A stretch of 32,000 nt of DNA from Ignicoccus pacificus DSM 13166 (GTDB lineage: Archaea; Thermoproteota; Thermoprotei_A; Sulfolobales; Ignicoccaceae), in assembly GCA_025340205.1 (NCBI GenBank), contig CP006868.1, positions 1,560,001-1,592,000 of the forward strand. Direction: 5' to 3'. A program made the position numbers and the translations under genes. How positions within the stretch are numbered: the first letter of the stretch is position 1; every line of letters begins with the position of its first letter. The notes below the pieces were generated by a model. The model saw only the letters and a list, made by a program, of their open reading frames with translations, had not been told where the DNA came from and ran no database searches. This document shows positions 8,165 through 28,307 of the stretch, one piece after another.

Positions 8165-10333
8165 TTATATGGAGGCCCTCTTGACCTCCTCTGCCAATCT
8201 CTCGTACCTCAAGATGTCCTCTCTCTTCAGACTCGGCGGCACCGCCTTCAGAGCCTTCTCGAAGTGCTTCATGCTCACTGGGACCGGCTTGAGGTTCTCC
8301 CTTAGGGCAATTAAGGCAGCCTCTCTGCACACGGCCGCGATGTCGGCACCGGTGTAGCCTTGGGTCATCTCGGCCAGCTTCTCCAAATCGACGTCGTCTG
8401 CCAAGGGCATTCTCCTAGTGTGCACCCTGAAGATCTCTAACCTTGCCTTCTTGTCCGGAGGTGGTACGTAGATCAGTCTGTCGAACCTTCCGGGCCTCAG
8501 CAGAGCCGGGTCGAGCAAGTCGGGCCTGTTGGTGGCTGCTATTACGGTGACCCTCTGGAGGGGCTCTATTCCATCCATCTCGGTGAGTAGCTGGTTCACT
8601 ATCCTGTCGAGCACTCCGCTAACATCCCTTCCTCTTCTAGCGGCAATGCTGTCTATCTCATCGAAGAACACTATGGTTGGAGCCGCTTGCCTCGCCTTCC
8701 TGAATATCTCCCTTATCGCCTTCTCGCTCTCTCCCACCCACTTGCTGAGGACCTCAGGTCCTCTCACCGCGATGAAGTTCGCTTGGCTCTCGGTAGCAGC
8801 CGCCTTGGCTAAGAGCGTCTTACCGGTTCCGGGGGGACCGAAGAGGAGGATGCCCTTGGGAGGTTCGATACCCATCTCAGTGAAGAACTCTGGGTGCTTG
8901 AGCGGCCACACCACGGCCTCCTTCAGCTGCTGCTTGACCTCCTCTAGACCTCCTATGTCCTCCCAGTGGACCTCGGGGACCTCGATGTAGACCTCCCTCA
9001 TTAGAGTCGGCTGAACTACCTTCATTGCGTTCAAGAAGTCCTTGAAGCTAACCTTGAGTTTCTCGAGCTCGCTGGTGGGTATCTTCTCTACCTTAGTTAG
9101 GTCAATTCCCTTCTCCTTAAAGAATCTCCTCAGTGCATTCATCGCTGCCTCCTTCACCAAGGCAGCTAGGTCCGCTCCGGTGTAGCCGTGAGTCATCTCC
9201 GCTATCTTGTCTAGGTCCACGTCCTCCGCTAGAGGTACGTTCCTAGTGTGAACCTCCAGTATCGCCTTCCTCGCCCTCTTATCGGGCGGAGGTATCTCTA
9301 TCTCTCTGTCGAACCTTCCAGGTCTCCTTAGGGCCGGATCGATGGCGTCGGGCCTGTTGGTGGCTCCTATTACCACGACCCTTCCTCTCTCTTGCAGTCC
9401 GTCCATCAGCGTCAACAGCTGTGCCACTACCCTCTTCTCCACCTCGCCGGTTACCTCCTCCCTCTTGGGGGCTATGGCGTCTATCTCGTCGATGAATATG
9501 ATGCTCGGAGCGTTCTTCCTAGCCTCCTCGAAGATCTCCCTCAACCTCTGCTCGCTCTCTCCGTAGTACTTGCTCATGATCTCTGGTCCGTTTATGGCGA
9601 TGAAGTAAGCTCCTATCTCATTGGCTAGGGCCTTTGCCAACATGGTCTTACCGGTTCCAGGAGGGCCGTAGAGGAGCACTCCCTTGGGAGGCTCTATTCC
9701 TAGGTGCCTGAAGACCTCTGGATGCTTCATCGGTAGCTCGACTATCTCCCTTAGCCTCTCCTTGGCCTCCTCTAGGTCTCCTATGTCCTCCCAAGTTACC
9801 TTAGGAACGCCCTTTATTGCCTCCTCCTTCACCGGCTTCTTACTTATCTTCACCTCAGTGTTCTCAGTCACGTATACCTTGGTGCCGGGCTGAGTGCTGA
9901 CGACCAATAGCTCAATGCTGGTCCCGAAGAAGGGTATCAGCACCTTCTCTCCTCTAACCAAAGGCTTGCCCAAGAGCATCTTCTTTACGTACTGCTCGAA
10001 GTCCGGTCCGAACTCTATGGGCTCAGTGGGCGCTAGAGTTACCCTAGTAGCCTCCTCTACCTTAGCCTTCCTTACGGTCACGTAGTCGCCTATGCTCACT
10101 CCTATCTGTTGTCTGCTTAGTCCATCTATTCTAATGATGTTCTTACCCTCATCTTGAGGATGAGCTGGCCAAACTTGCAGAACGATACTTCCCTTGGGCC
10201 CCTCTACCTCCACGAAGTCTCCGGTCACGACGTCAAGCTCTTTCATGTTGTGTCTGCTGATCCTCGCTATCTTCCTTCCAACGTCCCTCTGGCGGGCCTC
10301 CGCTACCCTAAGCCTCAGCTCCTTCCCTTCCAT
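8165..10333 (-). CDS. cdc48: AAA+ ATPase Cdc48/VCP/p97 (two AAA domains plus N-domain)
   Basis: Two Walker A motifs (GPPGTGKT), two Walker B motifs ([16 protein letters not shown]) and SRH motifs ([40 protein letters not shown]). The N-domain reads RLRVAEA...IVLQVWPA. I prefer ATG 10333 (MEGKELRL), preceded by GGGAG, to the TTG at 10339. Confidence 0.95.
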
Positions 10334-15117: not shown

Positions 15118-16395
15118 TTGCTGACCTTAGTCGTCCGAAGCAAGAGGGACGCGGATGCGCTAAAGAACATGTTGAAGAACTATCGAGGATCTTGGGACGC
15201 CGAAGTCCTTACCTTGAAGGGCGCTAGGGGGGAAAGGATCCTAGACGAACTACCTTCAATGGTATCATCTGATAGGATATACTTGGTCTTGCTAGGAAGG
15301 GAGGAGAAGGATATTGTAAGGGATTTGAGCAAGAAGACGCCGCCCAATGTCATAGTTCACATGGTACCCAAGAAGAGACTGAGAAACGCCAGATTAAGGG
15401 AGATGAGTTGGGAGTTGGAGGTCGCTAAAAGTCAACCTAGGCTCTGGTTCTCGTGGGAGGGGCCTCAAGCTTTTCTTAAAAAGAGATACATTAGAGGTGA
15501 GCCGGCCTCCGACTTGTTCTTGGGTTGGGGGCTTTGGTGGAAGACTCTAGGGATAGGTGATCCTTCACCAAAGGCATTTCTTGTGAAGAAGGGCGAAGGC
15601 GGATACCATGAGGTATATTCTAGAGGAAGAGTAGCCGCTATGTTCGAACTGGAAGACGATAGAGGTCCCGACACTACCTTGCTAGGGAAAGTAGAGGGCT
15701 TTGATTTGAAGAGGTTTGCAGAGTTAAGCAAAGACCTCGTGGAGAGCTTCGTAAAGGCTTCGGCTTCCTTGTTCGAAGGGTGTGAGCGCGTTGCCGTACC
15801 TTGGAGTGGGGGTAAGGATAGCACCGCTGCCTTGCTGATAGCTAAGAGGTTTTGTGATGACGTGAAGGCGATATATGTCGACACAGGAGTAGACATGGGT
15901 CTAAACATATACTATGTCAAGGAGTTAGCGGAAAGGCTTGACGTAGAACTTCATGTAGTCAAGGCCCCAGTCAAAGAGGAAATAGAAAGGAGGGGGTTGC
16001 CCCCAAAGGAGGACAGATGGTGTACAGGGCTCAAGATTAAGGCACTTGAGAACAAACTCAAGGAGTTAAAGGTAGACAGAGTGGTGGTTGGAGATAGGGA
16101 CGCTGAGTCTGTGTCTAGGTCTAAGAGGTGGGAGGTCAGGGAATGGGAAGGCGTTGGAAAAGTGATAGCTCCCCTGAAGCTGTGGAGTGCCGCCATGGTA
16201 CAGTCCTTCTTGATCTCCGAAGGCGTTCCGATAAACCCTCTCTATCCCTTAGGGTTCTACAGATTAGGATGCTACATTTGTCCTTTTTTGAGAAAGTACG
16301 AGAAGAGGTTGCTTAGGGAGGTAAGGGCCGCGAGGATGGGGGCAGACCTTAATCTGCTGAGGAGGTTTTTGGAGGGGGTTGACTTTGAGCTGTAG
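15118..16395 (+). CDS. PP-loop ATP pyrophosphatase of the PAPS-reductase family with an unknown N-terminal domain of about 210 aa
   Basis: 425 aa with a TTG start. VAVPWSGGKDSTAALL is the PP-loop. DRWCTGLKIKALE, VVGDRDAES, APLKLWS, INPLYPLGFYRLGCYICP follow the PAPS reductase/CysH-DndC-like pattern. I did not recognise residues 1-210. Confidence 0.8.
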   Translation: MLTLVVRSKRDADALKNMLKNYRGSWDAEVLTLKGARGERILDELPSMVSSDRIYLVLLGREEKDIVRDLSKKTPPNVIVHMVPKKRLRNARLREMSWELEVAKSQPRLWFSWEGPQAFLKKRYIRGEPASDLFLGWGLWWKTLGIGDPSPKAFLVKKGEGGYHEVYSRGRVAAMFELEDDRGPDTTLLGKVEGFDLKRFAELSKDLVESFVKASASLFEGCERVAVPWSGGKDSTAALLIAKRFCDDVKAIYVDTGVDMGLNIYYVKELAERLDVELHVVKAPVKEEIERRGLPPKEDRWCTGLKIKALENKLKELKVDRVVVGDRDAESVSRSKRWEVREWEGVGKVIAPLKLWSAAMVQSFLISEGVPINPLYPLGFYRLGCYICPFLRKYEKRLLREVRAARMGADLNLLRRFLEGVDFEL

Positions 16396-17104
16396 ACAGA
16401 AGCGAGCGTTCTTAGACTCCCTTGCTAAGGCACTTACCGAAATCTCGAAGAAGGACGCTAATCCTGCTACCATAACCCTCGTCGAGTCACTAAGCTCCTT
16501 AGCCGATAACTTCAGACCGAGGATAGCTTGTTCTCCCCTAAGTCCCAAGCTCTGGGACACATTGAACAACTATCTTAGCGAGTTACTCTCGTCGGATCTT
16601 CCAAAGGCTAAGAGAATGGTTGAGAACTTGAGGGATTCCGTGCTTTCGTTGCAAATGGCAGAGCTCTCGTGGCAGCAGCGAACAATAACCATACTTGGTG
16701 CCTTAGCTGCTCTGACCTTCCTCGTAACGGGTCCTTCCCTTCCCTTCTACGGACTCCTAGGTTCATCAATGATAGCGATAGCTAGGCCCATAGAGGGGGG
16801 CATTCTATCCGTATTCTGGGCCCTTTTCCTGAGCGTCACTCAACCCATATTGGGTGCCTTAGTAGCCTTCGCTGCTATGATGACAACGTTTTCCTTTGTT
16901 CCACCTTCTCTAAACTTGGAGGTGCCCAAAGTGGAGGTGGAGGCCCCCAGCGAGGAAGAGGTGTTGAAACTCTTCGAAGAAGTCTATGGAAGAAAGGGAA
17001 GGGATCTCTTCTATTTTGAACTCAAGCAGCTGATGATATATGGGATGACTAAGGAGGAGGCGTTGAGCGAACTCTGGAAGAGGCTGGTCGGGGAAACGAC
17101 TTAA
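16379..17104 (+). CDS. Membrane protein (about 3 TM) with soluble N- and C-terminal regions
   Basis: 241 aa. The TTG start overlaps the upstream gene by 17 nt. Hydrophobic core ITILGALAALTFLV...ILSVFWALFLSV...LGALVAFAAMMTTFSF. Confidence 0.55.
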   Translation: MTLSCRQKRAFLDSLAKALTEISKKDANPATITLVESLSSLADNFRPRIACSPLSPKLWDTLNNYLSELLSSDLPKAKRMVENLRDSVLSLQMAELSWQQRTITILGALAALTFLVTGPSLPFYGLLGSSMIAIARPIEGGILSVFWALFLSVTQPILGALVAFAAMMTTFSFVPPSLNLEVPKVEVEAPSEEEVLKLFEEVYGRKGRDLFYFELKQLMIYGMTKEEALSELWKRLVGETT

Positions 17105-17136: not shown

Positions 17137-17592
17137 GTGTCAGCGCCAGGAGGAAAGAGCAAGGAGTTGAAGATTGTAGCAAGGCAAGTAGTAACGCTAG
17201 ATGACATAAAGAAGAGCAAAAGGATGATCACCGTACTGCACATAGTGAAGCACCTTGGTGAGATCTCCGAGAAGGGTCTAACGCACTTGCTCTACGAAAT
17301 GAAGGAAAAGGGAGTCGACCTAGGCTACCAGTTTGTTAAGATAGGAAAGGTAATAGGTAGCAACGAGGTTCACCAAGACATCCTAGATTTACTCTATGTG
17401 GGTCTCATGGAGAGGGTGCCGGGCAAGAACAAGCTACGCTTGACCTCTGACGGCGAGGAGTTCTTGGAGAAGTACGGTGGAATAGTTTCCGAGGATGAAC
17501 TAAAGAGGATACTGGAAGTGGTCGATGAATTGAAGAGTACCATCAGTACGATCGAGGCAGAGGCTGAGATGAAAGGTAGAGTAAGGTGGTAG
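17137..17592 (+). CDS. Winged-helix-like protein with a coiled-coil C-terminal tail
   Basis: 151 aa. GTG start preceded by GAGGGGGTGA. ITVLHIVKHLGEISEKGLTHLLYEMKEKG...GLMERVPGKNKLRLTSDGEEFL looks like HTH plus wing. Confidence 0.5.
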   Translation: MSAPGGKSKELKIVARQVVTLDDIKKSKRMITVLHIVKHLGEISEKGLTHLLYEMKEKGVDLGYQFVKIGKVIGSNEVHQDILDLLYVGLMERVPGKNKLRLTSDGEEFLEKYGGIVSEDELKRILEVVDELKSTISTIEAEAEMKGRVRW

Positions 17593-17599
17593 GTTTCAC

Positions 17600-18346
17600 A
17601 TGCCACTACCCTCCAAGAAGCCTGAAAAGATTTCATTAACTATCTTGTTAAAGCCCGAGCTCTCGGAACATCACATCAGTGCAGAGTATGGTCAGACGCC
17701 CTCAGATCTAAGAACTACTTTAGCTAACAAGCTCGGAGTCTCTCCAAACAGGATAAGGTTGTTCGTCAAGAGGCCCGATGGTTCGGAGTACGACATAACT
17801 CACACTTCCGAGAGCGTCGGATCCCTAGTACAGAAATATGGTTCAATTTGGTATGCAACCATAGAGGAGCCCTACGGCTCCTCCCTTCTTTTAGAGGCAA
17901 TAAGTACCTTTAGGGAACATTACCTTAGCTCCGAATACTTAAAGAAACACTTCCATCCATTGGCTGAAGATCCCGGTCTTGGAATTCATGCAAGGCTCTT
18001 ATGCAAAAAGCCTCAGTACTGCGCTAACAACAGACCCTACGACGTGTTCATCCTCCCGAGCGTGGGATATCCTAACACTGAGCCTCTAATATTCGTAAGT
18101 CCTAAGGTATGGCATAAGTGCTGTTTCTACACGCTCAATGAAGAGTACTTCAGAACTAAGGCTTTGGAATTCCCAGAACTAGCTCCTTCCTTGGAAAAAG
18201 TAGCTGAAATGGTTAGCATGTCCGTTAACGCATGTGTTATGCATCTAGAGTCTTGGGATTATATCAGGCAAAGCGAGAACCCTCTGGAGGTAGTGGCCCT
18301 TGCGCTATGCACGGACGTTGGACTCTGCCACAGTACCGGTGCATAG
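17600..18346 (+). CDS. Fusion of an N-terminal beta-grasp (ubiquitin-like) domain and a C-terminal E2/UBC-like domain
   Basis: 248 aa. Residues ~10-92 (ISLTILLKPELSEHHISAEYGQTPSDLRTTLANKLGVSPNRIRLFVKRPDGSEYDI...GSIWYATIEE) follow the ubiquitin beta-beta-alpha-beta pattern. Residues ~95-248 follow the UBC pattern: an N-terminal helix, a beta-meander, then YDVFILPSVGYPNTEPLIFVSPKVWHKCC. Compare E2 [30 protein letters not shown]...C. Assignment is by eye only. Confidence 0.55.
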   Translation: MPLPSKKPEKISLTILLKPELSEHHISAEYGQTPSDLRTTLANKLGVSPNRIRLFVKRPDGSEYDITHTSESVGSLVQKYGSIWYATIEEPYGSSLLLEAISTFREHYLSSEYLKKHFHPLAEDPGLGIHARLLCKKPQYCANNRPYDVFILPSVGYPNTEPLIFVSPKVWHKCCFYTLNEEYFRTKALEFPELAPSLEKVAEMVSMSVNACVMHLESWDYIRQSENPLEVVALALCTDVGLCHSTGA

Positions 18347-18686
18347 AGCACTGATCAACGCTGAGATCTTCGTTGACGTTCTCAGAAAAGGGGTGCAGAA
18401 CAAGTGCTACAAGATCTCAAAGGATGCGTCCGAAGACGTAATAAGCTTCATAGGGAAGATGGATGACGAATTGCTCCTCCTAGAAAGAGCGAGAGATGTT
18501 AGTGCTTTAGAGAAAGGACCCACTAGCGTAAAGACTGCTGACTTGAAGCCCGAGGACTTGGTCCTCGTGCACTACCACTGCGGAATCTCCCCCGAGCCGT
18601 CAGCTATAGACATAGATACGATGAGTTTGGCTCTAAGGGTTCAACTGCTAGCAACCATACCCGGAAGGCCCGCGTGTTCGGAATAG
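18300..18686 (+). CDS. JAMM/MPN+ (JAB) metallopeptidase, minimal prokaryotic type
   Basis: 128 aa. Exact JAMM motif H-Y-H-CGISPEP-S-AI-D (HxHx7SxxD) at 18570-18611, with an upstream Glu in SEDVISFIGK (E-x-x-x-x-F/L-x-G pattern). TTG 18300 is preceded by GGAGGT with 8-nt spacing. GTG 18339 is an alternative start. Confidence 0.75.
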   Translation: MRYARTLDSATVPVHRALINAEIFVDVLRKGVQNKCYKISKDASEDVISFIGKMDDELLLLERARDVSALEKGPTSVKTADLKPEDLVLVHYHCGISPEPSAIDIDTMSLALRVQLLATIPGRPACSE

Positions 18687-19096
18687 CCTCTCCTACCCAG
18701 AGCGGGAGATCCTTCTGTATCGACTTAGCCCTTTACGAACCCGTTCCTATGATGAGCATAGGCTATGAGGACATAAAGGTGAACGTGAAGGATTATTCGT
18801 TTATCAGAATAAAGAAGAAGGCTTTCATAAGCTACGAGATAGATGAAGGCGAACTGGCGATATATGGCGAACCTTGCTCTACGCCCGAAGAAGGATGTAT
18901 ACCTTACAGAGTGGGCTCCACGTCCAAGATAACATTGGAGGACTTCATATTCATTGGTTCCTACCACCTCAACACTAAACTCTCGGAATTTCCTTATGTA
19001 AAGATAACGGGTGACAAGGTTAGAGGTTATGCTATCAAGGTCTTTAACCTCGACGTGAAGAAGGCCGTGATAAGGGGCGTACCTTGGAGAGTGTAG
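18674..19096 (+). CDS. Hypothetical beta-rich protein embedded between the JAB and E1 genes
   Basis: 140 aa. The GTG start overlaps the JAB stop by 13 nt, and the stop overlaps the E1 start. No family recognised. Confidence 0.5.
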   Translation: MFGIASPTQSGRSFCIDLALYEPVPMMSIGYEDIKVNVKDYSFIRIKKKAFISYEIDEGELAIYGEPCSTPEEGCIPYRVGSTSKITLEDFIFIGSYHLNTKLSEFPYVKITGDKVRGYAIKVFNLDVKKAVIRGVPWRV

Positions 19097-19872
19097 CAAG
19101 GGGGTTTCAAGAGAGAACGAGCAAGTACATGAGTGACATGGGATACGATGTAAGCGATAAGAGCGTTCTAATAGGAGGAGTTGGCACTCTAGGCTCAAGG
19201 ATTCTCAGGAACCTTTCACGCTTCAATTTCAAGAAGATCTACGTGATAGACTTTGATGTGGTGGGTCCAGAGAACGTAGGTTATCAATGCTACCACAGCG
19301 AAGAAGTCGGTCTGAAGAAGGTTGAGTGCATAAGCAAGAGGTTTCAAAAGTTCCACCCATGGACGAACATAGAAGGTCTGTACCTAGAAGTTCCTACTCC
19401 TTCGGGACTCTGGAGCGAGGAGAGTTTCGAGAAGATTCGTTCCTTAGTAAAGAGCGTTGATATAGTGGTTACATCCTTCGACGTCCTCCCTCCTCGAGCG
19501 ACTCTCCTAGTGTTGGCTGTGAAATATAATAAATTCTTTATCGATACTGGACTTGGACCTACAAGAGGATATGTAAAGGTACTCCAAGAAGGTTATTGTC
19601 CTATATGTGGAAAGATCTGGGATGAGAGAGTAGCTTACTACACGAATCCCAACTTAGCAGAGCTGGTCGCCTCGCTAGCGTCCCAAGCGGTAATTCACCT
19701 ACTTAACGGCGTAGATTGGCCCAGCGAAGTCAGCATATACTTAGAAAATCCATGGAGACCTCTCATGGTTAGTAAGGTTAAGAACGATGGATGCAGGTTG
19801 TGTTCAGAAGAGGTTAAGGAGCTAGAGACTTCTGAAGAATTTTTGAGGTATATAATAAAAAACGCCTATTGA
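19084..19872 (+). CDS. ThiF/MoeB/E1-like adenylating enzyme (ubiquitin-activating-enzyme-like)
   Basis: 262 aa. VLIGGVGTLGSRILRNLSRFNFKKIYVIDFDVVGPENVGYQ aligns by eye with the ThiF/MoeB Rossmann segment (GxGxxG at 19174-19197, D-x-D, N-x-x-x-Q). Also GLKKVE, TSFDVLPPRATL and two Cys pairs, CPIC and CRLC (zinc site as in MoeB/ThiF). ATG 19129 is an alternative start. Confidence 0.8.
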   Translation: MESVARGFQERTSKYMSDMGYDVSDKSVLIGGVGTLGSRILRNLSRFNFKKIYVIDFDVVGPENVGYQCYHSEEVGLKKVECISKRFQKFHPWTNIEGLYLEVPTPSGLWSEESFEKIRSLVKSVDIVVTSFDVLPPRATLLVLAVKYNKFFIDTGLGPTRGYVKVLQEGYCPICGKIWDERVAYYTNPNLAELVASLASQAVIHLLNGVDWPSEVSIYLENPWRPLMVSKVKNDGCRLCSEEVKELETSEEFLRYIIKNAY

Positions 19873-19874
19873 TC

Positions 19875-21179
19875 TTACTTAGGCACTATCTTCTCGTATA
19901 GCTTCAGTCCAGTGCTGGGGCTCCAGAAGCCCACGTCCACGAAGGTAGGCTTGCCGTTGACTATCTTGACGGTCCATATGCTATAGCTGGTGGTTAGGGG
20001 CTCCTGATAGATGGCGTTCATGCTCTTCTGTCCGCTGAAGCCCTTGTAGATGTAGCTCATTTCAATTATAGCATGCTCCATTAGGTTGGGGTTGAAGCTA
20101 GCAGCCCTCAGAGCTCCTAGGGTCACTAGCCAGACGGCGTCGTATAGGGTGTCGCTGAACTCAACGGGAGCCTTTCCGTACACGCTCTCATAGTACTTGA
20201 TGAAGTTACCGGCGGTGTAGGGGGCGGTTCCTAGGACGTGCTTGATGGCTAGTATCTTGGCGACCACGGGATCAGCTAGCAGAGCAGGTCCCTTGACGGC
20301 CTCAGTGAAGAACCATGGATACTTCTGTAGTCCTAGAGTTAGAGCTTGTCTTAGTATGACCTTGATCTCGTCGAAGGCTAGCCAGACTATGGCTTGTGGG
20401 TTGTAGTTGTAGATGCTCCTTAGCTCAGCTAGGTAGCTCCTGGCGTTGGGATCGTAGGGTATCAGGTAGGCCTTACCTCCTAGGTTCTCGAAGGCTTGCT
20501 TAAAGGCTAGGGCGAATCCTCTTCCATAGTCGTCATTCCTGTAGAAGAATACCACCTTCTTGTAGCCGAAGCTGTGAACGACGCTGGCTAGGGCCTTTCC
20601 TTGGAATAGGTCGCTGCTGACGCTGAAGAAGACGTAGCTGTAACCCATCTTCTTGATAGCGGCCTCGTTGTTGAACCTCACTAGAGGAGAGGTGCTGGAG
20701 TGGCTCATTAGTATGACCTTCAGCTCGGTGTTGATAACGTCTTGCAGAGTACCGACAGCAGCACTGGTAGCGGGTCCGACTATCATGTGGACGTGGTCTA
20801 TGTTGACTAGCTTCCTAGCCTTCTCTAGAGCTATCTGAGGCATGGTCTGAGTGTCCTCGACTATTAGGGTGACGTGGAAGGGTAGACCTAGCTCCTTGAA
20901 GCACGTATTTATGTCCCTAACAGCTAGCTTGGCTGCGTACTGCTCGTCGGCGAAGGAAGCCAGAGCGCCGCTCAGAGGAATCAGAGCACCTATCTTGATG
21001 TTGGTAGTTCCTAGACCCTCCTTTACCTTCTCTAGACCTCCAGCTCTGTTGATAGCTATCTTGAGGTACTCACACTTAGGACCGCCGTACTTCTCTTGAG
21101 GAGCCGCATGGACCAAGACGGTGCCGAACACTAGGGCGGTTAGCAGGAGGGCGAAGATAACCTTCTTCACCACATTCAC
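19875..21179 (-). CDS. ABC transporter substrate-binding protein, LivJ/branched-chain amino acid type (paralog A)
   Basis: 434 aa. N-terminal signal/anchor. IKIGALIPLSGALASFADEQYAAKLAVRDIN...MIVGPATSAAV is the typical Peripla_BP_6 pattern. No adjacent permease or ATPase genes. Confidence 0.85.
   Translation of the reverse strand: MNVVKKVIFALLLTALVFGTVLVHAAPQEKYGGPKCEYLKIAINRAGGLEKVKEGLGTTNIKIGALIPLSGALASFADEQYAAKLAVRDINTCFKELGLPFHVTLIVEDTQTMPQIALEKARKLVNIDHVHMIVGPATSAAVGTLQDVINTELKVILMSHSSTSPLVRFNNEAAIKKMGYSYVFFSVSSDLFQGKALASVVHSFGYKKVVFFYRNDDYGRGFALAFKQAFENLGGKAYLIPYDPNARSYLAELRSIYNYNPQAIVWLAFDEIKVILRQALTLGLQKYPWFFTEAVKGPALLADPVVAKILAIKHVLGTAPYTAGNFIKYYESVYGKAPVEFSDTLYDAVWLVTLGALRAASFNPNLMEHAIIEMSYIYKGFSGQKSMNAIYQEPLTTSYSIWTVKIVNGKPTFVDVGFWSPSTGLKLYEKIVPK
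20313..20363. repeat. 51-bp tract identical to 21692-21742 (inside paralog A)
   Basis: CCATGGATACTTCTGTAGTCCTAGAGTTAGAGCTTGTCTTAGTATGACCTT is present in both paralogs. On the minus strand it encodes KVILRQALTLGLQKYPW. Confidence 0.9.
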
Positions 21180-21256: not shown

Positions 21257-22558
21257 TTACCTTGGATGTATTGGCATGTATAGCTCGATTCCAGTATCAG
21301 GATCCCAGAAGCCGACCTTGACTACGGTAGGCTTGCCGTTGACTATCTTTATAGTCCAGTAGTGATAGCTAGTCTTCATCGGCTCTTGGGTCAGCGGGTT
21401 GAACTTCTTTGGTCCGGTGTAGCCCTTGAAGTAAGCTCCTACCTCGAGCAGCGCTTGCCTAATGGCATCGGCTTGATACTTTCCGGCCTTTAGAACGCTG
21501 AGGGCGGATAGCCATAGAGTGTCATAGATGTAGTCAGCATAGAGCATTGGAGGTATTCCGAACTTCTTCTCGTAGAGCTTAGCGAAGGCCTCGCTTCCTC
21601 CGGGTCCGGTTCCAATACCCTGCTTGAGGGCCACTATCTTGGCTAGGTAGGGGTCATTGAGGAGCACTCCTCTACAAGTCTCACTGAACAGCCATGGATA
21701 CTTCTGTAGTCCTAGAGTTAGAGCTTGTCTTAGTATGACCTTCAGCTCGTCGAAGGATATGAAGAGTATGGCGTCGGGCTTGCTAGCCGCGACCACTCTC
21801 AGCTCGGCGTCGAAGGTCCTGGCGTTAGGGTCATATGGGACTAGGACGACCTTGCCTCCATGCTTGGCGAAGTAGTACTTGAAGGCGGTAGCTAGACCTA
21901 CTCCGTAGTCGTCTTGCCTATACATTATGGTTACCTTCTTGTAACCAAGCTTGGCAGCTAGGTCAGCTAGGGCGTTTCCTTGAAGGAAGTCGTTAGTGAT
22001 AGCCCAGAATATGTAGGACTTTCCGGTCTTAGCGATATACTCCTTGTAGTTCTCAACTCTTAGATTGGGTGCAGTACTGGTAGCAGACATCACCACGACG
22101 TGAAGCTCCTCGTTGACGGGGTACATCAAGGAGCCCATGGGCCTGCTGGTGATCCTTCCAGCGATTATCTGAACTCCTTGGAGAGCTAGCTTTCTAACGA
22201 CCTCGACGGCGGTCTGAGGATCGGTCCTAGTGTCCTCGGGCAGGAACTTGAACCTCCAAGGCAGTCCAAGCTTTTCCATACAACCGTTGATCTCATCGGA
22301 GGCCAGCTTTATGGCGTTGTAGTTGGAGACGGCGAAGGATCCTAGAGCTCCGCTCAGGGGGGCGGGAGCTCCTATTAGGATAGTTTTAGGAAGGTGTATG
22401 TTGTTGACGCCGCCGGCCCACTCTACTACCTTCATAATACTCTCACAGTTAGGTCCCAGCTGGTAAGGCTGGGTTAGCAGGGAGAGCTCTTGCTTGCTCA
22501 AGCCAGCAGCGAAGAGCATCACTCCGAGAGCTAGAAATACTACCAGCGCCTTCTTCAC
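21257..22558 (-). CDS. ABC transporter substrate-binding protein, LivJ/branched-chain amino acid type (paralog B)
   Basis: 433 aa. Same architecture as paralog A (ILIGAPAPLSGALGSFAVSNYNAIKLASDEIN...). Tandem, same strand. Confidence 0.85.
   Translation of the reverse strand: MKKALVVFLALGVMLFAAGLSKQELSLLTQPYQLGPNCESIMKVVEWAGGVNNIHLPKTILIGAPAPLSGALGSFAVSNYNAIKLASDEINGCMEKLGLPWRFKFLPEDTRTDPQTAVEVVRKLALQGVQIIAGRITSRPMGSLMYPVNEELHVVVMSATSTAPNLRVENYKEYIAKTGKSYIFWAITNDFLQGNALADLAAKLGYKKVTIMYRQDDYGVGLATAFKYYFAKHGGKVVLVPYDPNARTFDAELRVVAASKPDAILFISFDELKVILRQALTLGLQKYPWLFSETCRGVLLNDPYLAKIVALKQGIGTGPGGSEAFAKLYEKKFGIPPMLYADYIYDTLWLSALSVLKAGKYQADAIRQALLEVGAYFKGYTGPKKFNPLTQEPMKTSYHYWTIKIVNGKPTVVKVGFWDPDTGIELYMPIHPR
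21692..21742. repeat. 51-bp tract identical to 20313-20363 (inside paralog B)
   Basis: See the feature at 20313-20363. The flanking 14 nt differ at only 2 positions. Confidence 0.9.
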
Positions 22559-22729: not shown

Positions 22730-22801
22730 GCCGCCGTAGCTCAGCGGGAGAGCGCCCGGCTGAAGACCGGGTTGTCCGGGGTTCGAATCCCCGCGGCGGC
22801 A
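22730..22801 (+). tRNA. tRNA-Phe (anticodon GAA)
   Basis: GCCGCCG acceptor pairs with CGGCGGC, followed by discriminator A. D arm GCTC/GAGC. Anticodon stem CCCGG/CCGGG with loop CTGAAGA. T arm CGGGG-TTCGAAT-CCCCG. No encoded CCA and no intron. Confidence 0.9.
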
Positions 22802-22921
22802 CTATCCTCCGACTCAGCAATTCACTTCCTCACTCAAAAGCTCCTCTCTTCATGACAAATCCGAACAAACCAAGTCCTTTTAACCTCACTCACAGACCCC
22901 TACTCCACGGTGAGGGAAGCT

Positions 22922-23245
22922 ATGGAGTACATCTACGCTAGTTTGCTACTCCACTCTGCCAACAAGGAGATAACCGAGGAGAACTTGAAGAAGGTGCTCG
23001 AGGCCGCTGGAATCCAAGTCGACGACGTGAGGCTAAAGGCTCTGGTGGCGGCCCTCAAGGAGGTCAACATAGACGAGGCTATCAAGAGCGCCGCCTTCCC
23101 CGTAGCAGCGCCCGCTGCCGCTCCGGCTGCTGCCCCGGCTGCTGGAGCCGAGGAGAAGAAGGAAGAGGAAGAGGAGGAAGAGGAGAAGAAGGAGGCTGTC
23201 AGCGAGGAGGAGCTATCCGCTGGTCTCGGCGCCCTCTTCGGCTAA
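22922..23245 (+). CDS. rpl12: Ribosomal stalk protein P1 (archaeal L12/aP1)
   Basis: [54 protein letters not shown], an Ala/Pro hinge, a Glu/Lys-rich tail, and the terminal GLGALFG. ATG 22922 is preferred to GTG 22910. Confidence 0.92.
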
Positions 23246-27856: not shown

Positions 27857-28242
27857 AGTACAGAGATCTCGCCTCCAGAATGGGAAGAGCAATAAGGGCT
27901 CTAGGCTTCTTCATATTTGAAAAAGAAGAATACCAAAGGGTCTCAAAAATATTGAAAGCAGCAAAACTGGGGGAGACCTTAAGGATTATACCCTTGGGCT
28001 CCGTCGAGATACACTTAGCTAATGAAAGTCTCGTAACGGAGTATTATGCGGTCATCTTGAATAACAACGAATGCTTGAGGAGTTGCAATGACTCGGAGTG
28101 TATGGAGAAATGTGTCGAAGAGAAGAAGAACAACGTCTCCGAGGCTATCTTGGAAGGCTTGGGAAATGTGAGAGAGGACGAGAGGGAGGATGGACTAAGC
28201 AAGGTCTTCAAGAAGTTGACTGGTGCGGGGGGTGGGATTTGA
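27841..28242 (+). CDS. Hypothetical protein; its 3' end overlaps tRNA-Leu on the opposite strand
   Basis: TTG 27841 is preceded by GGGAGG with 6-nt spacing. ATG 27880 is an alternative start. The last ~7 codons (..TGAGGGI*) are encoded by the complement of the tRNA 3' end. No family recognised. Confidence 0.4.
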   Translation: MEVPVEYRDLASRMGRAIRALGFFIFEKEEYQRVSKILKAAKLGETLRIIPLGSVEIHLANESLVTEYYAVILNNNECLRSCNDSECMEKCVEEKKNNVSEAILEGLGNVREDEREDGLSKVFKKLTGAGGGI

Positions 28243-28307
28243 ACCCACGCAGGCCTACGCCAGCGGGTCTTAAGCCCGCCCCCTTTTCCGGGCTCGGGCA
28301 CCCCCGC
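28221..28307 (-). tRNA. tRNA-Leu (anticodon UAA), long variable arm, genomically encoded CCA
   Basis: The reverse complement reads GCGGGGGTGCCCGAGCCCGGAAAAGGGGGCGGGCTTAAGACCCGCTGGCGTAGGCCTGCGTGGGTTCAAATCCCACCCCCCGCACCA. Acceptor GCGGGGG/CCCCCGC, anticodon loop CTTAAGA, T arm GTGGG-TTCAAAT-CCCAC, 87 nt including CCA. Confidence 0.9.

Follow-up and report, generated by a model that had tools for sequence, protein, structure and literature searches.

A predicted Ubl protein-conjugation cassette with a Ubl-E2-like fusion and an E1 lacking a crossover-loop Cys in Ignicoccus

Does a run of overlapping genes in Ignicoccus pacificus DSM 13166 encode a ubiquitin-like (Ubl) conjugation system, and if so, which known system does it resemble? 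The window is the whole 32,000-nucleotide stretch analyzed here; coordinates are window positions, and all cassette genes lie on the plus strand. An initial annotation had described four co-directional open reading frames as a conjugation module. All four were found, at 17600-18346 (ORF1), 18300-18686 (ORF2), 18674-19096 (ORF3) and 19084-19872 (ORF4), with overlaps of 47 nt (ORF1/ORF2), 13 nt (ORF2/ORF3) and 13 nt (ORF3/ORF4), and their reported motifs are present. However, ORF2 and ORF3 belong to a single gene, and the gene list left out a fifth gene at 17137-17592, which is a cassette member and the most conserved of all.

15118-16395, plus strand: PAPS-reductase/PP-loop-like protein (PF01507, 5.5e-30; NF006351, 1.4e-128)
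16379-17104, plus strand: fast-evolving membrane protein
17137-17592, plus strand: small conserved protein of 151 aa, first cassette gene, 7 nt upstream of ORF1
17600-18346, plus strand: ORF1, predicted Ubl-E2-like fusion precursor of 248 aa (IPA_09200, 100% match)
17627-17878, plus strand: predicted beta-grasp Ubl domain, approximately residues 10-93, C-terminal end IEEPYG (AF2 model and Foldseek)
17879-18343, plus strand: predicted diverged UBC/UEV-like (E2-like) domain, residues 94-248 (AF2 and Foldseek)
18300-19096, plus strand: JAMM/JAB-like peptidase with a C-terminal domain of about 140 aa, split here into ORF2 and ORF3
18432-18434, plus strand: upstream catalytic Glu45, at least 90% conserved in 19 homologues
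18570-18611, plus strand: JAMM motif H91-x-H93-x7-S101-x2-D104, invariant in 19 homologues
18669-18673, plus strand: frameshift site, a C-run CCC (18669-18671) followed by GC; orthologues have CCN-CGN/AGN (Pro-Arg)
19084-19872, plus strand: E1-like adenylating enzyme (ORF4) of 262 aa with a single ThiF domain (Pfam ThiF, 2.8e-24)
19177-19194, plus strand: E1 GxGxxG
19597-19608 and 19792-19803, plus strand: E1 CxxC pairs
19636-19638, plus strand: E1 invariant Tyr185

At every orthologous locus, the ORF1 homologue and ThiF are separated by one gene, with a product of 252-274 aa (265 aa in L011 and L012), and ORF2 and ORF3 together align end to end with this single gene. The JAMM-like family has 19 homologues, all intact (210-277 aa), and tblastn with the JAMM-like protein gave single uninterrupted HSPs in six loci. 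The window sequence AGG CCC -GC GTG TTC, in which one C is missing, corresponds to CCN (C/A)GN (G/A)TN T(T/A)Y in orthologues, and in P0019, the closest relative, the frame runs on through the site as ATIPGRPRVFGIASP. ORF2 and ORF3 are therefore the halves of one gene split by a 1-nt deletion: ORF3 encodes the C-terminal part of the JAMM-like protein, and the "extra unknown gene" of the initial annotation is a frameshift artefact. The frameshift either is a genuine lesion or reflects a sequencing error in the homopolymer. If it is real, the JAB peptidase would be truncated in I. pacificus only, Ubl release would be impossible and the system would possibly be inactive in this strain; the deposited genome does annotate the halves separately (IPA_09205 has 115 aa), and one base is clearly missing from the window sequence. 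We consider such decay rather unlikely, since loss of one base from a homopolymer is a typical assembly error, the two halves are otherwise free of stops and show 48-66% identity to Ignicoccus-type orthologues (38% at L011), and the remaining cassette genes, like the homologues in all 19 cases, are intact.

The conserved core consists of four genes, encoding the 151-aa protein, the Ubl-E2-like fusion, the JAMM/JAB-like protein and the E1. The same gene set was found at seven Ignicoccus-type loci, covering all three cultured Ignicoccus species and related MAGs; cassette identities track those of the flanking genes, and orthologous loci keep the E2-like gene without exception. The cassette occupies a genus-conserved chromosomal locus. 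At two distant loci, the Ubl-E2-like gene adjoins ThiF and Prok-JAB (L006) or Prok-JAB (L007). The gene for the 151-aa protein is present in 7/7 Ignicoccus-type loci, even where the flanks differ, and its product shows the highest conservation within the cassette, with 69-77% identity at these loci and 56-58% at L011. Its family matches are weak (DUF4364, 4e-4 in one of five members; DUF2250, 0.087), and it is possibly a winged-helix protein. The genes for the PAPS-reductase-like and membrane proteins (15118-17104) are variably linked and lie outside the conserved core: they are present in five of the seven loci and are not beside the cassette in I. islandicus (L003) or L011, and in I. pacificus they are probably co-transcribed with it. 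The upstream PAPS-reductase-like gene of these five loci is compatible with sulfur chemistry. As far as the archaeal literature could be searched, no description of the cassette was found.

ORF1, ORF2 and ORF3 are recognized by none of the curated profile libraries (Pfam, PADLOC, NCBIfam), and this lack of recognition of ORF1 and the JAB-like protein counts against conjugation. The Ubl, E2 and JAMM assignments are based on predicted structure, invariant motifs and synteny. The ORF1 family comprises 12 members, plus those of loci L008-L011 and the distant homologues P0034 and P0037. The AF2 model of ORF1 (pLDDT 86) has two domains joined by a linker at residues 91-93 that is modelled with low confidence and read as flexible. 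The N-terminal domain is predicted to be a beta-grasp Ubl with the topology b-b-a-b-b-a-b; Foldseek against the PDB returned Ufm1, SUMO1 and Ubl domains (E about 1e-4, probability 1.0, TM(target) 0.72-0.77), the BFVD matches are also Ubls, and sequence matches to ubiquitin entries in Pfam and the PDB are present but sub-threshold. All 17 sequences have Gly93 (codon 17876-17878), and directly after it they carry variable insertions; JAB is predicted to cleave here, which would make Gly93 the C-terminus of the Ubl.

The C-terminal domain is modelled as strongly diverged and UBC/UEV-like, with a best Foldseek E of only 0.05. Its isolated AF2 model (pLDDT 92.9, pTM 0.89) has the topology a-a-b4-a-a-b-a, without the two C-terminal helices found in canonical E2s. 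UBC E2s make up 49 of the top 50 PDB matches (E 0.05-0.6, TM 0.3-0.49), and rank 1 is the non-catalytic UEV-like domain of VPS37A, with a non-significant E of 0.049. An hhalign match to UBE2D2 over the YPxxxP...H segment (E 0.11) is weak but in register, and a weak UQ_con match in P0034 (E 0.12) falls in the same register. The structural models therefore agree with the beta-grasp and E2-like fusion first read from the DNA, while the E2 half is statistically weak (Foldseek E at least 0.05). Cys174 (codon 18119-18121, HKCC motif) is the only universally conserved Cys (17/17), and it is kept in homologues of just 24-27% identity; N210 is found in 17/17, H172 in 16/17 (Phe in L011) and C212 in 15/17. 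Cys174 is the candidate nucleophile of the E2-like domain, and its earlier proposal as the acceptor is reasonable. Alternatively, this domain could be a non-catalytic UEV/RWD-like binding module, with the E1 alone conjugating after JAB processing in the SAMP/Urm1 style; archaeal SAMP/Urm1 systems run without an E2 (PMC2948915), the top match is VPS37A with all E2 matches non-significant, Cys174 lines up with the Asn of HPN, off the canonical E2 Cys position in sequence, and 6e E2-like domains were long held to be inactive. We regard this as improbable, since Cys174 is invariant and accompanied by the conserved polar residues N210 (invariant) and H172 (nearly so), the E1 scores only 25 bits against the NCBIfam model of the SAMP E1 UbaA (cut-off 450), and the predicted inactivity of 6e/Bub E2-like domains was overturned experimentally (PMC11601596).

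The JAMM assignment is carried by motif and synteny. ORF2 carries HYHCGISPEPSAID, which fits HxHx7SxxD (H91, H93, S101, D104), with Glu45 upstream. The Ignicoccus JAMM-like proteins themselves match Prok-JAB with an E of 0.26 at best, and sequence comparison links them to this family via the syntenic genes of two distant loci. The L007 gene matches Prok-JAB (Pfam) at 3.2e-7 (30.6 bits against a threshold of 25) and carries HSHPHGLSSYSGID together with PKIYGIA/FFQP segments in common with the JAMM-like protein, while the L006 gene aligns to both halves of it (hhalign E 4.5e-4). The invariant motif and this chain uphold the peptidase proposed initially.

The E1 contains the motifs GGVGTLG, DFD, SFD, CPIC and CRLC. 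A PDB profile search ranked ATG7 (4.6e-18) ahead of UBA1/UBA3, MoeB (1.8e-11) and ThiF (1e-9), and all NCBIfam matches are far under the equivalog cut-offs (ThiF/MoeB, 67 vs 159 bits). The E1-like ThiF enzyme thus shows no preferential grouping with MoeB/ThiF, and among solved structures it is closest to the protein-conjugating E1s ATG7, UBA1 and UBA3. No rhodanese domain was found in it. A crossover-loop Cys was looked for in eight E1 sequences and none was found, the loop Cys residues being those of the CxxC pairs only; ATG7 Cys507 aligns with position 184, next to Tyr185, and Tyr185 and both CxxC pairs are present in 8/8. Since the crossover-loop catalytic Cys is lacking, a simple E1~Cys to E2~Cys relay, as implied in the initial annotation, is unlikely.

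The E1 and its neighborhood also bear on a sulfur-carrier role, in which the JAB protein would free the Ubl, the E1 would adenylate it and the thiocarboxylate would give sulfur to the upstream PAPS-reductase/PP-loop-like enzyme for tRNA/cofactor thiolation or sulfur assimilation, with the E2-like domain as an accessory or sulfur-relay module. JAB processing of the sulfur carriers CysO (by Mec+) and QbsE (by QbsD) is a precedent, five of the seven loci have a co-directional PAPS_reduct/PP-loop gene two genes upstream, and the top NCBIfam names for the E1 are ThiF/MoeB. Operons of ThiS/MoaD, JAB, E1 and PAPS reductase are known, including one from a crenarchaeon (PMC1779556, Table 1 row 4e). Nevertheless, this role is doubtful: the PAPS-reductase gene is unlinked to the cassette in I. 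islandicus, L011 and L006, and the low ThiF/MoeB scores, the ATG7, UBA1 and UBA3 relatives and the lack of a rhodanese domain and crossover-loop Cys argue against it. In addition, the C-terminus of the Ubl is Tyr-Gly and not Gly-Gly, its fusion partner is a UBC-like domain that conserves a Cys, and its top fold matches are Ufm1/SUMO instead of ThiS/MoaD. E1s in E2-containing neighborhoods lack rhodanese domains and lie beside JAB genes (Iyer et al., PMC1779556), as they do here.

Taken together, these results favor, with a probability of about 60%, the reading that the four genes form a cassette, confined to the Ignicoccus clade, for E2-dependent conjugation of a Ubl to proteins, with a JAB protein and a Cys-less E1. 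Its mechanism can be proposed from the cassette anatomy and the biochemistry of bacterial Type I Bub. ORF1 would first be produced as a precursor, and the JAMM peptidase would cut it after Gly93 (IEEPYG, followed by S), giving a Ubl of 93 residues that ends in Gly and leaving the E2-like part as a free protein of 155 residues. The ThiF-type E1, probably a Zn-binding homodimer, would adenylate the Ubl C-terminus. Since the E1 has no crossover-loop Cys, we propose two possible routes for the activated Ubl: through an oxyester on invariant Tyr185, as BubCD does, or from the adenylate straight onto the E2-like domain. Cys174 would then hold the Ubl as a thioester for transfer to target lysines with no E3, and the JAB protein may also undo conjugation.

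The same chemistry could serve an antiviral or anti-mobile-element role like that of Bil, Bub or CBASS Cap2/Cap3, with the small upstream protein as a regulator; the initial annotation had raised defence as a possibility. The architecture is like that of Bub, whose operons associate with defence regulators; a PIN-domain gene pair lies directly downstream in L011, the distant L006 cassette adjoins a HerA/DUF87 ATPase and small ORFs, and PADLOC gave partial Cap2-type E1-E2 matches for the E1. These matches, however, are limited to residues 22-129 (the Rossmann part), no other cassette gene was matched and PADLOC called no defence system at the locus. Moreover, 2.9 million viral contigs held no relatives of the cassette, and an effector gene, a CD-NTase and DUF6527 are all absent from it. 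Its presence in three cultured species and MAGs, with identities that parallel those of the flanks and the same downstream neighbor in 6/7 Ignicoccus-type loci, is unlike patchy defence islands. The context thus does not support defence, which we consider unlikely, and conserved synteny and vertical inheritance lead us to prefer a housekeeping or regulatory role particular to this lineage to that of a mobile defence island.

The gene order had been likened to that of BilABCD, with the cis Ubl-E2 fusion as a departure. The closest known system is instead bacterial Type I Bub, formerly "6E.1"/DUF6527 (row 6e of Iyer, Burroughs & Aravind 2006, PMC1779556, Table 1; Ye, Gong, Chambers & Corbett 2024, PMC11601596), which is defined by such a fusion. 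Of the earlier interpretation, the fusion, the JAMM peptidase, the E1 and Cys174 are retained, whereas the extra gene, Bil as the reference system, the simple Cys relay and the defence role need revision or lack support. Type I Bub has a JAB that cuts the Ubl-E2 fusion behind a conserved Gly, a Cys-less E1 that works through an invariant Tyr of the crossover loop, and an E2 without C-terminal helices (PMC11601596). In both systems, a Ubl is fused N-terminally to an E2-like domain and the junction holds a conserved Gly; both also have a JAB/JAMM peptidase within the operon, a single-domain ThiF/UBA5-like E1 without a crossover-loop Cys and with an invariant Tyr near the C-terminal end of the loop, an E2-like domain without the C-terminal helix pair, and no E3. 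In contrast to Bub, the Ignicoccus cassette has JAB and E1 as separate genes, the JAB with its own C-terminal domain of about 140 aa; it lacks the DUF6527/BubE protease and filament-forming domains, has one beta-grasp domain rather than 1-3, keeps a Cys (HxC) where Bub has Ser-x-His, and includes the highly conserved 151-aa protein. No sequence similarity between its proteins and Bub-related Pfam families is detectable, and it occupies a genus-conserved chromosomal locus in an archaeal host.

Bil (BilABCD), a bacterial ISG15-like antiviral conjugation system, shares the components Ubl, E2, JAB and E1 and their gene order, but its Ubl is a separate protein and its E1 is large (IAD-AAD-CYS) with a mobile catalytic-Cys domain, compared with 262 aa, a single domain and no catalytic Cys in Ignicoccus. 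CBASS Cap2/Cap3 shares E1, E2 and JAB chemistry and the partial PADLOC "E1-E2" match to the Rossmann region; Cap2, however, combines E2 and E1 in one protein and conjugates the C-terminus of the CD-NTase, and the Ignicoccus cassette has neither this Ubl-less architecture nor a CD-NTase or effector. The SAMP/Urm1 systems of Haloferax and Sulfolobus (UbaA/ELSA E1 and JAMM) likewise combine an archaeal host, a small beta-grasp modifier, a ThiF-type E1 and a JAMM protease, but they lack an E2, and their modifiers end in Gly-Gly and also act as sulfur carriers. The minimal architecture of the eukaryotic UFM1/UBA5/UFC1 and ATG7/ATG3/ATG10 cascades is similar, with no evidence of orthology: Ufm1 provides the best structural matches of the Ubl, the E1 is of the minimal homodimer type closest to ATG7, and the E2s are non-canonical, whereas UBA5 and ATG7 have the crossover-loop catalytic Cys that the Ignicoccus E1 lacks. 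Maturation of Ufm1 also exposes a single C-terminal Gly by cleavage. Caldiarchaeum subterraneum and Asgard archaea have eukaryote-like Ub operons (PMC3082918, PMC5654768), which share with the cassette Ubl, E2-like, E1-like and JAMM genes with partial overlaps; their Ub, UBC, UBA-type E1, RING E3 and Rpn11 are readily recognizable and eukaryote-type, whereas Ignicoccus has a fused Ubl-E2, a Cys-less E1, no RING and no UQ_con match at threshold. The Ignicoccus cassette thus resembles a pared-down ubiquitin-tagging machine of Bub-like build that is invisible to standard sequence profiles.

The four co-directional, overlapping or abutting ORFs reported by the initial annotation lie exactly where it had placed them, and the product of ORF1 matches IPA_09200 of Ignicoccus pacificus DSM 13166 at 100% identity. 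Together with a small gene 7 nt upstream, they make up the following cassette, in which the functions named are predicted:

17137-17592 (+), small protein of 151 aa
17600-18346 (+), ORF1, Ubl-E2-like fusion of 248 aa
18300-18686 (+), ORF2, first part of the JAMM/JAB-like gene
18674-19096 (+), ORF3, second part of the JAMM/JAB-like gene
19084-19872 (+), ORF4, ThiF-type E1 of 262 aa

The GC content across the cassette (0.46-0.48) is near the window average, and two minus-strand ORFs (17394-17636 and 18725-19198) were rejected since the stretches they occupy are conserved coding sequence of the plus strand. ORF1, ORF2 and ORF3 had no significant match in Pfam, PADLOC or NCBIfam, so that among the four ORFs curated profiles recognise ORF4 alone. 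The I. hospitalis orthologues are annotated merely as hypothetical, 'Ubiquitin-like domain-containing' or 'ThiF family'; Igni_0137 is named explicitly in the annotation output, and the numbers Igni_0135, 0136 and 0138 follow from the consecutive accessions ABU81319-22. No account of the locus or of Igni_0135-0138 turned up in the literature on Ignicoccus and ubiquitin/JAMM, within a coverage that leaves out much subscription literature, so that novelty is not proven. The observation is real, apart from one artefact (a split gene), and its initial interpretation is right in the main, with changes to the analogue, to the novelty of the fusion and to the strength of the E2 assignment. The cassette is a sequence-orphan archaeal variant of an already known kind of system.

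The artefact concerns ORF3, which had been counted as an extra unknown gene. In I. hospitalis, I. islandicus and hydrothermal-vent metagenomes, a single gene of 252-274 aa is found between the ORF1 homologue and ThiF, and ORF2 plus ORF3 align with this single orthologous gene from end to end. At the DNA level the orthologues all read Pro-Arg-Val/Ile-Phe/Tyr (CCN CGN/AGN GTN/ATN TTY/TAY), where the window reads AGG CCC -GC GTG TTC, one C short in the run at 18669-18671. The repaired JAB-like sequence gave one uninterrupted HSP in each of six other loci (tblastn), and the family recovered by profile search has 19 members of 210-277 aa, all of them intact. Since ORF2 and ORF3 are one gene in the orthologues, with one base missing here, the supposed extra gene is the C-terminal domain (~140 aa) of the JAMM-like protein. 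Either an assembly error in the homopolymer or a lesion peculiar to this strain accounts for the split. Programmed frameshifting was rejected because the homologues are all in frame. That the JAB gene is truly decaying in the I. pacificus strain, which would concern the status of the gene and not the mechanism, is rather doubtful. At the other end of this gene, the 47 nt at 18300-18346 are dual-coding: the C-terminal tail of ORF1, whose ALCTDVGLC does not vary in 12 sequences, and the N-terminus of the JAB-like protein, whose M-x-YARTLDSATV is kept in most of the 19, are read in different frames and are each conserved as protein. At two distant loci, L006 and L007, the Ubl-E2-like and JAB-like genes lie ~112 nt apart without overlap.

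The JAMM-like protein carries the complete E...HxHx7Sx2D motif, with H91-x-H93-x7-S101-x2-D104 invariant and Glu45 at least 90% conserved in 19 homologues. In member-wise Pfam scans, the Ignicoccus proteins reached Prok-JAB (PF14464) only below threshold (best E 0.26), and the family profile had no JAMM match among PDB sequences, against which the canonical JAB of L007 gave a weak peptidase match. This L007 gene, which follows the Ubl-E2-like gene, is above the Pfam threshold for Prok-JAB (E 3.2e-7, 30.6 bits against a cut-off of 25); it contains EIGG and HSHPHGLSSYSGID, and its PKIYGIA...FFQP corresponds to PRVFGIA...LYEP of Ignicoccus. At L006, the gene after the Ubl-E2-like gene aligns with the Ignicoccus JAMM-like profile over both halves (hhalign E 4.5e-4; HKHGGFTDPSYID), and a second, canonical Prok-JAB lies downstream of the ThiF gene. 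Synteny in these two distant loci would link the JAMM-like protein to JAB.

The ORF1 family is tiny: an index of 5.8 billion sequences contains 12 of its proteins. Among 1.84 billion representatives, an exhaustive HMMER search returned one 50%-identity cluster and two real distant homologues, the other matches being long repetitive proteins, and three more MAG loci with ORF1 homologues were found among 185,579 species genomes; no relatives were found in viral contigs, and none in a metagenome scan with the distant homologue P0037 as the query. In the AlphaFold2 model of ORF1 (pLDDT 86), residues 91-93 are a low-confidence linker between two domains. The first, at residues 10-88, is a beta-grasp of b-b-a-b-b-(a)-b topology, and a Foldseek search against PDB ranked Ufm1, SUMO1 and further Ubl domains highest (E ~1e-4, prob 1.0, TM(target) 0.72-0.77), with Ubl matches also in BFVD. 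The orthologues are labelled 'Ubiquitin-like domain-containing' in UniRef, and member-wise Pfam scans gave ubiquitin matches below threshold. At the domain boundary, within the low-pLDDT linker, Gly93 is a candidate for the exposable C-terminal Gly of the Ubl; homologues carry insertions directly after Gly93-Ser94, as would be expected of a linker. Conservation was counted over 17 ORF1-family sequences, two of which are homologues just 24-27% identical.

Conserved residues of ORF1 (occurrence among 17 family sequences)
Gly93, domain junction IEEPYG/S: 17/17
Cys174, E2-like domain: 17/17
Asn210, E2-like domain: 17/17
His172, E2-like domain: 16/17, Phe in L011 (divergent Ignicoccus-type MAG locus)
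Cys175, E2-like domain: 16/17
His215, E2-like domain: 16/17
Cys212, E2-like domain: 15/17

Since Ubl matches filled the full-length Foldseek lists against PDB and BFVD, residues 94-248 were modelled alone. The isolated model (pLDDT 92.9, pTM 0.89) has the order helix-helix-four strands-two helices-strand-helix, which fits a UBC fold. Of the top 50 Foldseek matches of this model in PDB, 49 were UBC-fold E2 enzymes, in keeping with the E2-like domain proposed for ORF1 by the initial annotation, but the support is weak in statistical terms: the best E was 0.049, with nothing at E <= 0.001 and a best TM of 0.48-0.49 (UbcH7), and the sequence signals lie at E 0.11-0.12. The family profile had no E2 match among PDB sequences. 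The sole hhalign match of the domain to UBE2D2 (VGYPNTEPLIFVSPKVWHK, E 0.11) and a sub-threshold match of the distant homologue P0034 to UQ_con (E 0.12) in the equivalent region are both weak and are in the same register. A strongly diverged UBC/UEV-like fold is thus likely but not proven for the C-terminal domain of ORF1. Cys212 was considered as the catalytic Cys, as it fits the canonical E2 C-x-x-x-L-x-x-W pattern, yet it is missing in both P0034 and P0037, which makes Cys174, present in all 17 sequences, the better candidate nucleophile; its proposal as an acceptor is favoured by this conservation. In the sequence alignment, Cys174 aligns to the Asn of the canonical HPN motif and not to the canonical E2 Cys. 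The match at rank 1 of the Foldseek search was the UEV-like domain of VPS37A, and the reading of this part of ORF1 as a non-catalytic UEV-like domain within an E2-independent system is very unlikely.

Membership of ORF4 in the ThiF superfamily is clear (PF00899, E 2.8e-24, 86 bits against a cut-off of 28.1), and GxGxxG, the Asp motifs and both CxxC pairs are kept in all eight E1 sequences. From the first CxxC to the PNLAE helix, all eight are without any other Cys, in which they depart from a canonical thioester-forming E1. The one invariant residue of the crossover loop is Tyr185 (8/8); the catalytic Cys507 of ATG7 aligns to the adjoining residue 184, which is Ala, Thr or Arg. When the E1 profile was compared with PDB sequences, ATG7 was closest (4.6e-18, near full length), followed by UBA1 and UBA3 and then by MoeB (1.8e-11), ThiF and UBA5. 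The description of ORF4 as an E1-like enzyme has therefore held up, as ATG7, UBA1 and UBA3 rank above MoeB and ThiF and a firm grouping with the latter two was not found. The NCBIfam scores were all far under their cut-offs (ThiF 67/159 bits, MoeB 33/266, the SAMP E1 UbaA 25/450), and PADLOC matches to Cap2-type 'E1-E2' were confined to the Rossmann region (residues ~22-129). Neither a rhodanese domain nor a crossover-loop Cys, as looked for in sulfur-carrier activators of the MoeB/ThiF/UbaA kind, is present in the E1. Some 3 kb downstream of the cassette, both I. islandicus (L003, 11482-12045) and a vent metagenome (L004, 11507-12076) have a second, short ThiF-family gene (187-189 aa) beside rpoB and a DUF505 protein, so that those genomes encode at least two E1-like enzymes.

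The 151-aa gene upstream of ORF1 is present in all seven Ignicoccus-type loci, including L011 and L012 with their entirely different flanks. Its product is the most conserved of the cassette, with 58-77% identity to the window protein, compared with 50-68% for the Ubl-E2, 50-65% for the E1 and 38-66% for the JAB-like protein. Searches of PDB and Pfam gave no significant family for it, only chance-level matches such as estrogen receptor and weak wHTH DUFs, and hhalign found no relation to the upstream proteins of L006. The genes around the cassette in the window are:

15118-16395, PAPS-reductase/PP-loop-like protein of 425 aa (PF01507 5.5e-30; NF006351 'hypothetical protein' 1.4e-128), with an N-terminal ~200 aa without family and weak PADLOC matches to BrxP (4.6e-17) and SspD (1.3e-9)
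16379-17104, predicted membrane protein of 241 aa between the preceding gene, which it overlaps by 17 nt, and the cassette
19875-21179 (-) and 21257-22558 (-), two tandem paralogues of ~433 aa, convergent on the E1 gene
22730-22802 (+), tRNA-Phe(GAA), and 28221-28307 (-), tRNA-Leu(TAA), called by ARAGORN and confirmed by Rfam
22910-23245, ORF of 111 aa with a PAAA-repeat hinge and a poly-Glu/Lys tail ending GLGALFG

No other Rfam family reached the gathering threshold in the window, and the 111-aa ORF, read from its translation alone, looks like an archaeal acidic ribosomal stalk protein (P1/L12 type). The membrane protein evolves very fast, with 28-34% identity against 57-89% in its neighbours; its gene and the PAPS-reductase-like gene lie upstream in five of the seven loci and are missing in I. 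islandicus and L011. Operons of ThiS/MoaD, JAB, E1 and PAPS reductase exist, one of them in a crenarchaeon (PMC1779556), and a sulfur-carrier pathway coupled to the PAPS-reductase-like enzyme would follow this pattern; it is quite unlikely here, as the linkage to the cassette is not conserved and the features of the E1 and the Ubl speak against it.

Downstream, synteny extends to the binding-protein gene in six of the seven loci. I. hospitalis has a matching tandem pair annotated as periplasmic-binding-protein type (Peripla_BP_6/ANF_receptor), and the first paralogue is 80-89% identical to its orthologues in five of six comparison loci, with no match in L011, where an 85-aa ORF and a PIN-domain protein (8584-9239), a toxin-antitoxin-like pair, lie directly downstream of the E1. 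The identities of the cassette genes run parallel to those of the flanking genes, which, together with the synteny, argues for vertical inheritance of the cassette. The distant locus L006 (1-9894 of a Logan SRR12235901 contig) has, in order, Ubl-E2-like, a degenerate JAB-like gene of 229 aa, ThiF, the second Prok-JAB (8.9e-11), two small ORFs and a 734-aa HerA/DUF87 ATPase, with an M48 peptidase upstream; this context looks more like a mobile or defence-type setting than the Ignicoccus locus does. A defence role of the Ignicoccus cassette, which would use the same conjugation chemistry, is unlikely.

From the folds, motifs, conservation and synteny shown above, a conjugation mechanism is inferred as the most likely reading of the cassette (probability about 0.6). 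The JAB would cut the ORF1 precursor after Gly93, and the E1 would adenylate the released Ubl. The Ubl could then pass to Cys174 of the E2-like domain, either via Tyr185 or straight from the adenylate, and would be conjugated to lysines without an E3; the JAB may also reverse the conjugation.

By published description, the closest analogue of the cassette among known systems is the bacterial Type I Bub operon, which was formerly called '6E.1' and is listed in row 6e by Iyer et al. 2006 (PMC1779556). Bub operons have been described as bacterial. BubAB is a Ubl-E2 fusion that is cut behind a conserved Gly by the JAB domain of BubCD; there is no crossover-loop Cys in the E1 domain, which makes use of an invariant Tyr; the E2 works with Ser-x-His and is without the C-terminal helix pair; and a DUF6527 serine protease is encoded in all of the operons (Ye et al. 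2024, PMC11601596). The cis Ubl-E2 fusion, which the initial annotation had named as a difference from BilABCD, is therefore not novel. The cassette resembles Type I Bub in its predicted fused precursor with a junction Gly, in the JAB encoded within the operon, in the Cys-less E1 with an invariant crossover-loop Tyr, which by analogy may serve in catalysis, and in the truncated UBC fold seen in the model. In contrast, JAB and E1 are fused in BubCD but are separate, overlapping genes at all Ignicoccus loci; no match to DUF6527/PF20137 (BubE) was found in the cassette proteins or in the called genes within 6-7 kb at five loci; and where the Bub E2 has Ser-x-His plus Asp, the Ignicoccus proteins have no invariant Ser-x-His (Ser218 varies and is absent in the distant homologues) and conserve Cys174 instead. 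The JAB C-terminal domain and the small 151-aa protein are additional to the Bub set. Since three defining Bub features (JAB-E1 fusion, DUF6527 and Ser-x-His) are missing, we liken the cassette to Type I Bub and do not class it as a member.

In archaea, E2-dependent Ubl conjugation is on record so far for the eukaryote-like operons of Caldiarchaeum and of the Asgard lineages, and cultivated Thermoproteota are thought to use E2-independent tagging of the Urm1/SAMP type. A bolder and less probable reading is that the cassette may be a vertically inherited, genus-core, E2-dependent tagging system of the Ignicoccus clade and the first in a cultivated crenarchaeon (Thermoproteota), in which a Cys-less E1 would pass the Ubl as a Tyr185 oxyester to a non-canonically placed Cys of a minimal UBC fold. 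The Ubl-E2 precursor would be of a self-cleaving style, the JAB would have a novel C-terminal domain, and a novel small protein would be a partner. The cassette could then represent a separate archaeal line of the Bub-type architecture at the service of host physiology and not of defence, possibly of membrane/endomembrane biology or the association with Nanoarchaeum. If the cassette is active, the Bub-type design of a fused precursor plus a Cys-less E1 reaches from bacteria to archaea and is not confined to mobile defence islands, and Igni_0135-0138 offer a thermostable minimal four-protein system from a culturable host for dissecting Ubl transfer without an E1 cysteine. As the case shows, such systems can escape Pfam, PADLOC and NCBIfam, and structure prediction plus synteny is then the only way to recover them.

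The initial annotation had taken Bil as the model for the gene order. BilABCD has a stand-alone Ubl and an IAD-AAD-CYS E1, whereas in Ignicoccus Ubl and E2-like domain form one protein and the E1 is a 262-aa enzyme with a single adenylation domain; with its fused precursor, Cys-less Tyr E1 and truncated UBC fold, Type I Bub is closer. CBASS Cap2/Cap3 has an E2-E1 fusion beside a CD-NTase and an effector, whereas the Ignicoccus E1 is separate and no CD-NTase was found in the flanks. Bil, Cap2/Cap3, SAMP/Urm1 and the eukaryote-like operons of Caldiarchaeum/Asgard all stand farther from the cassette than Type I Bub does.
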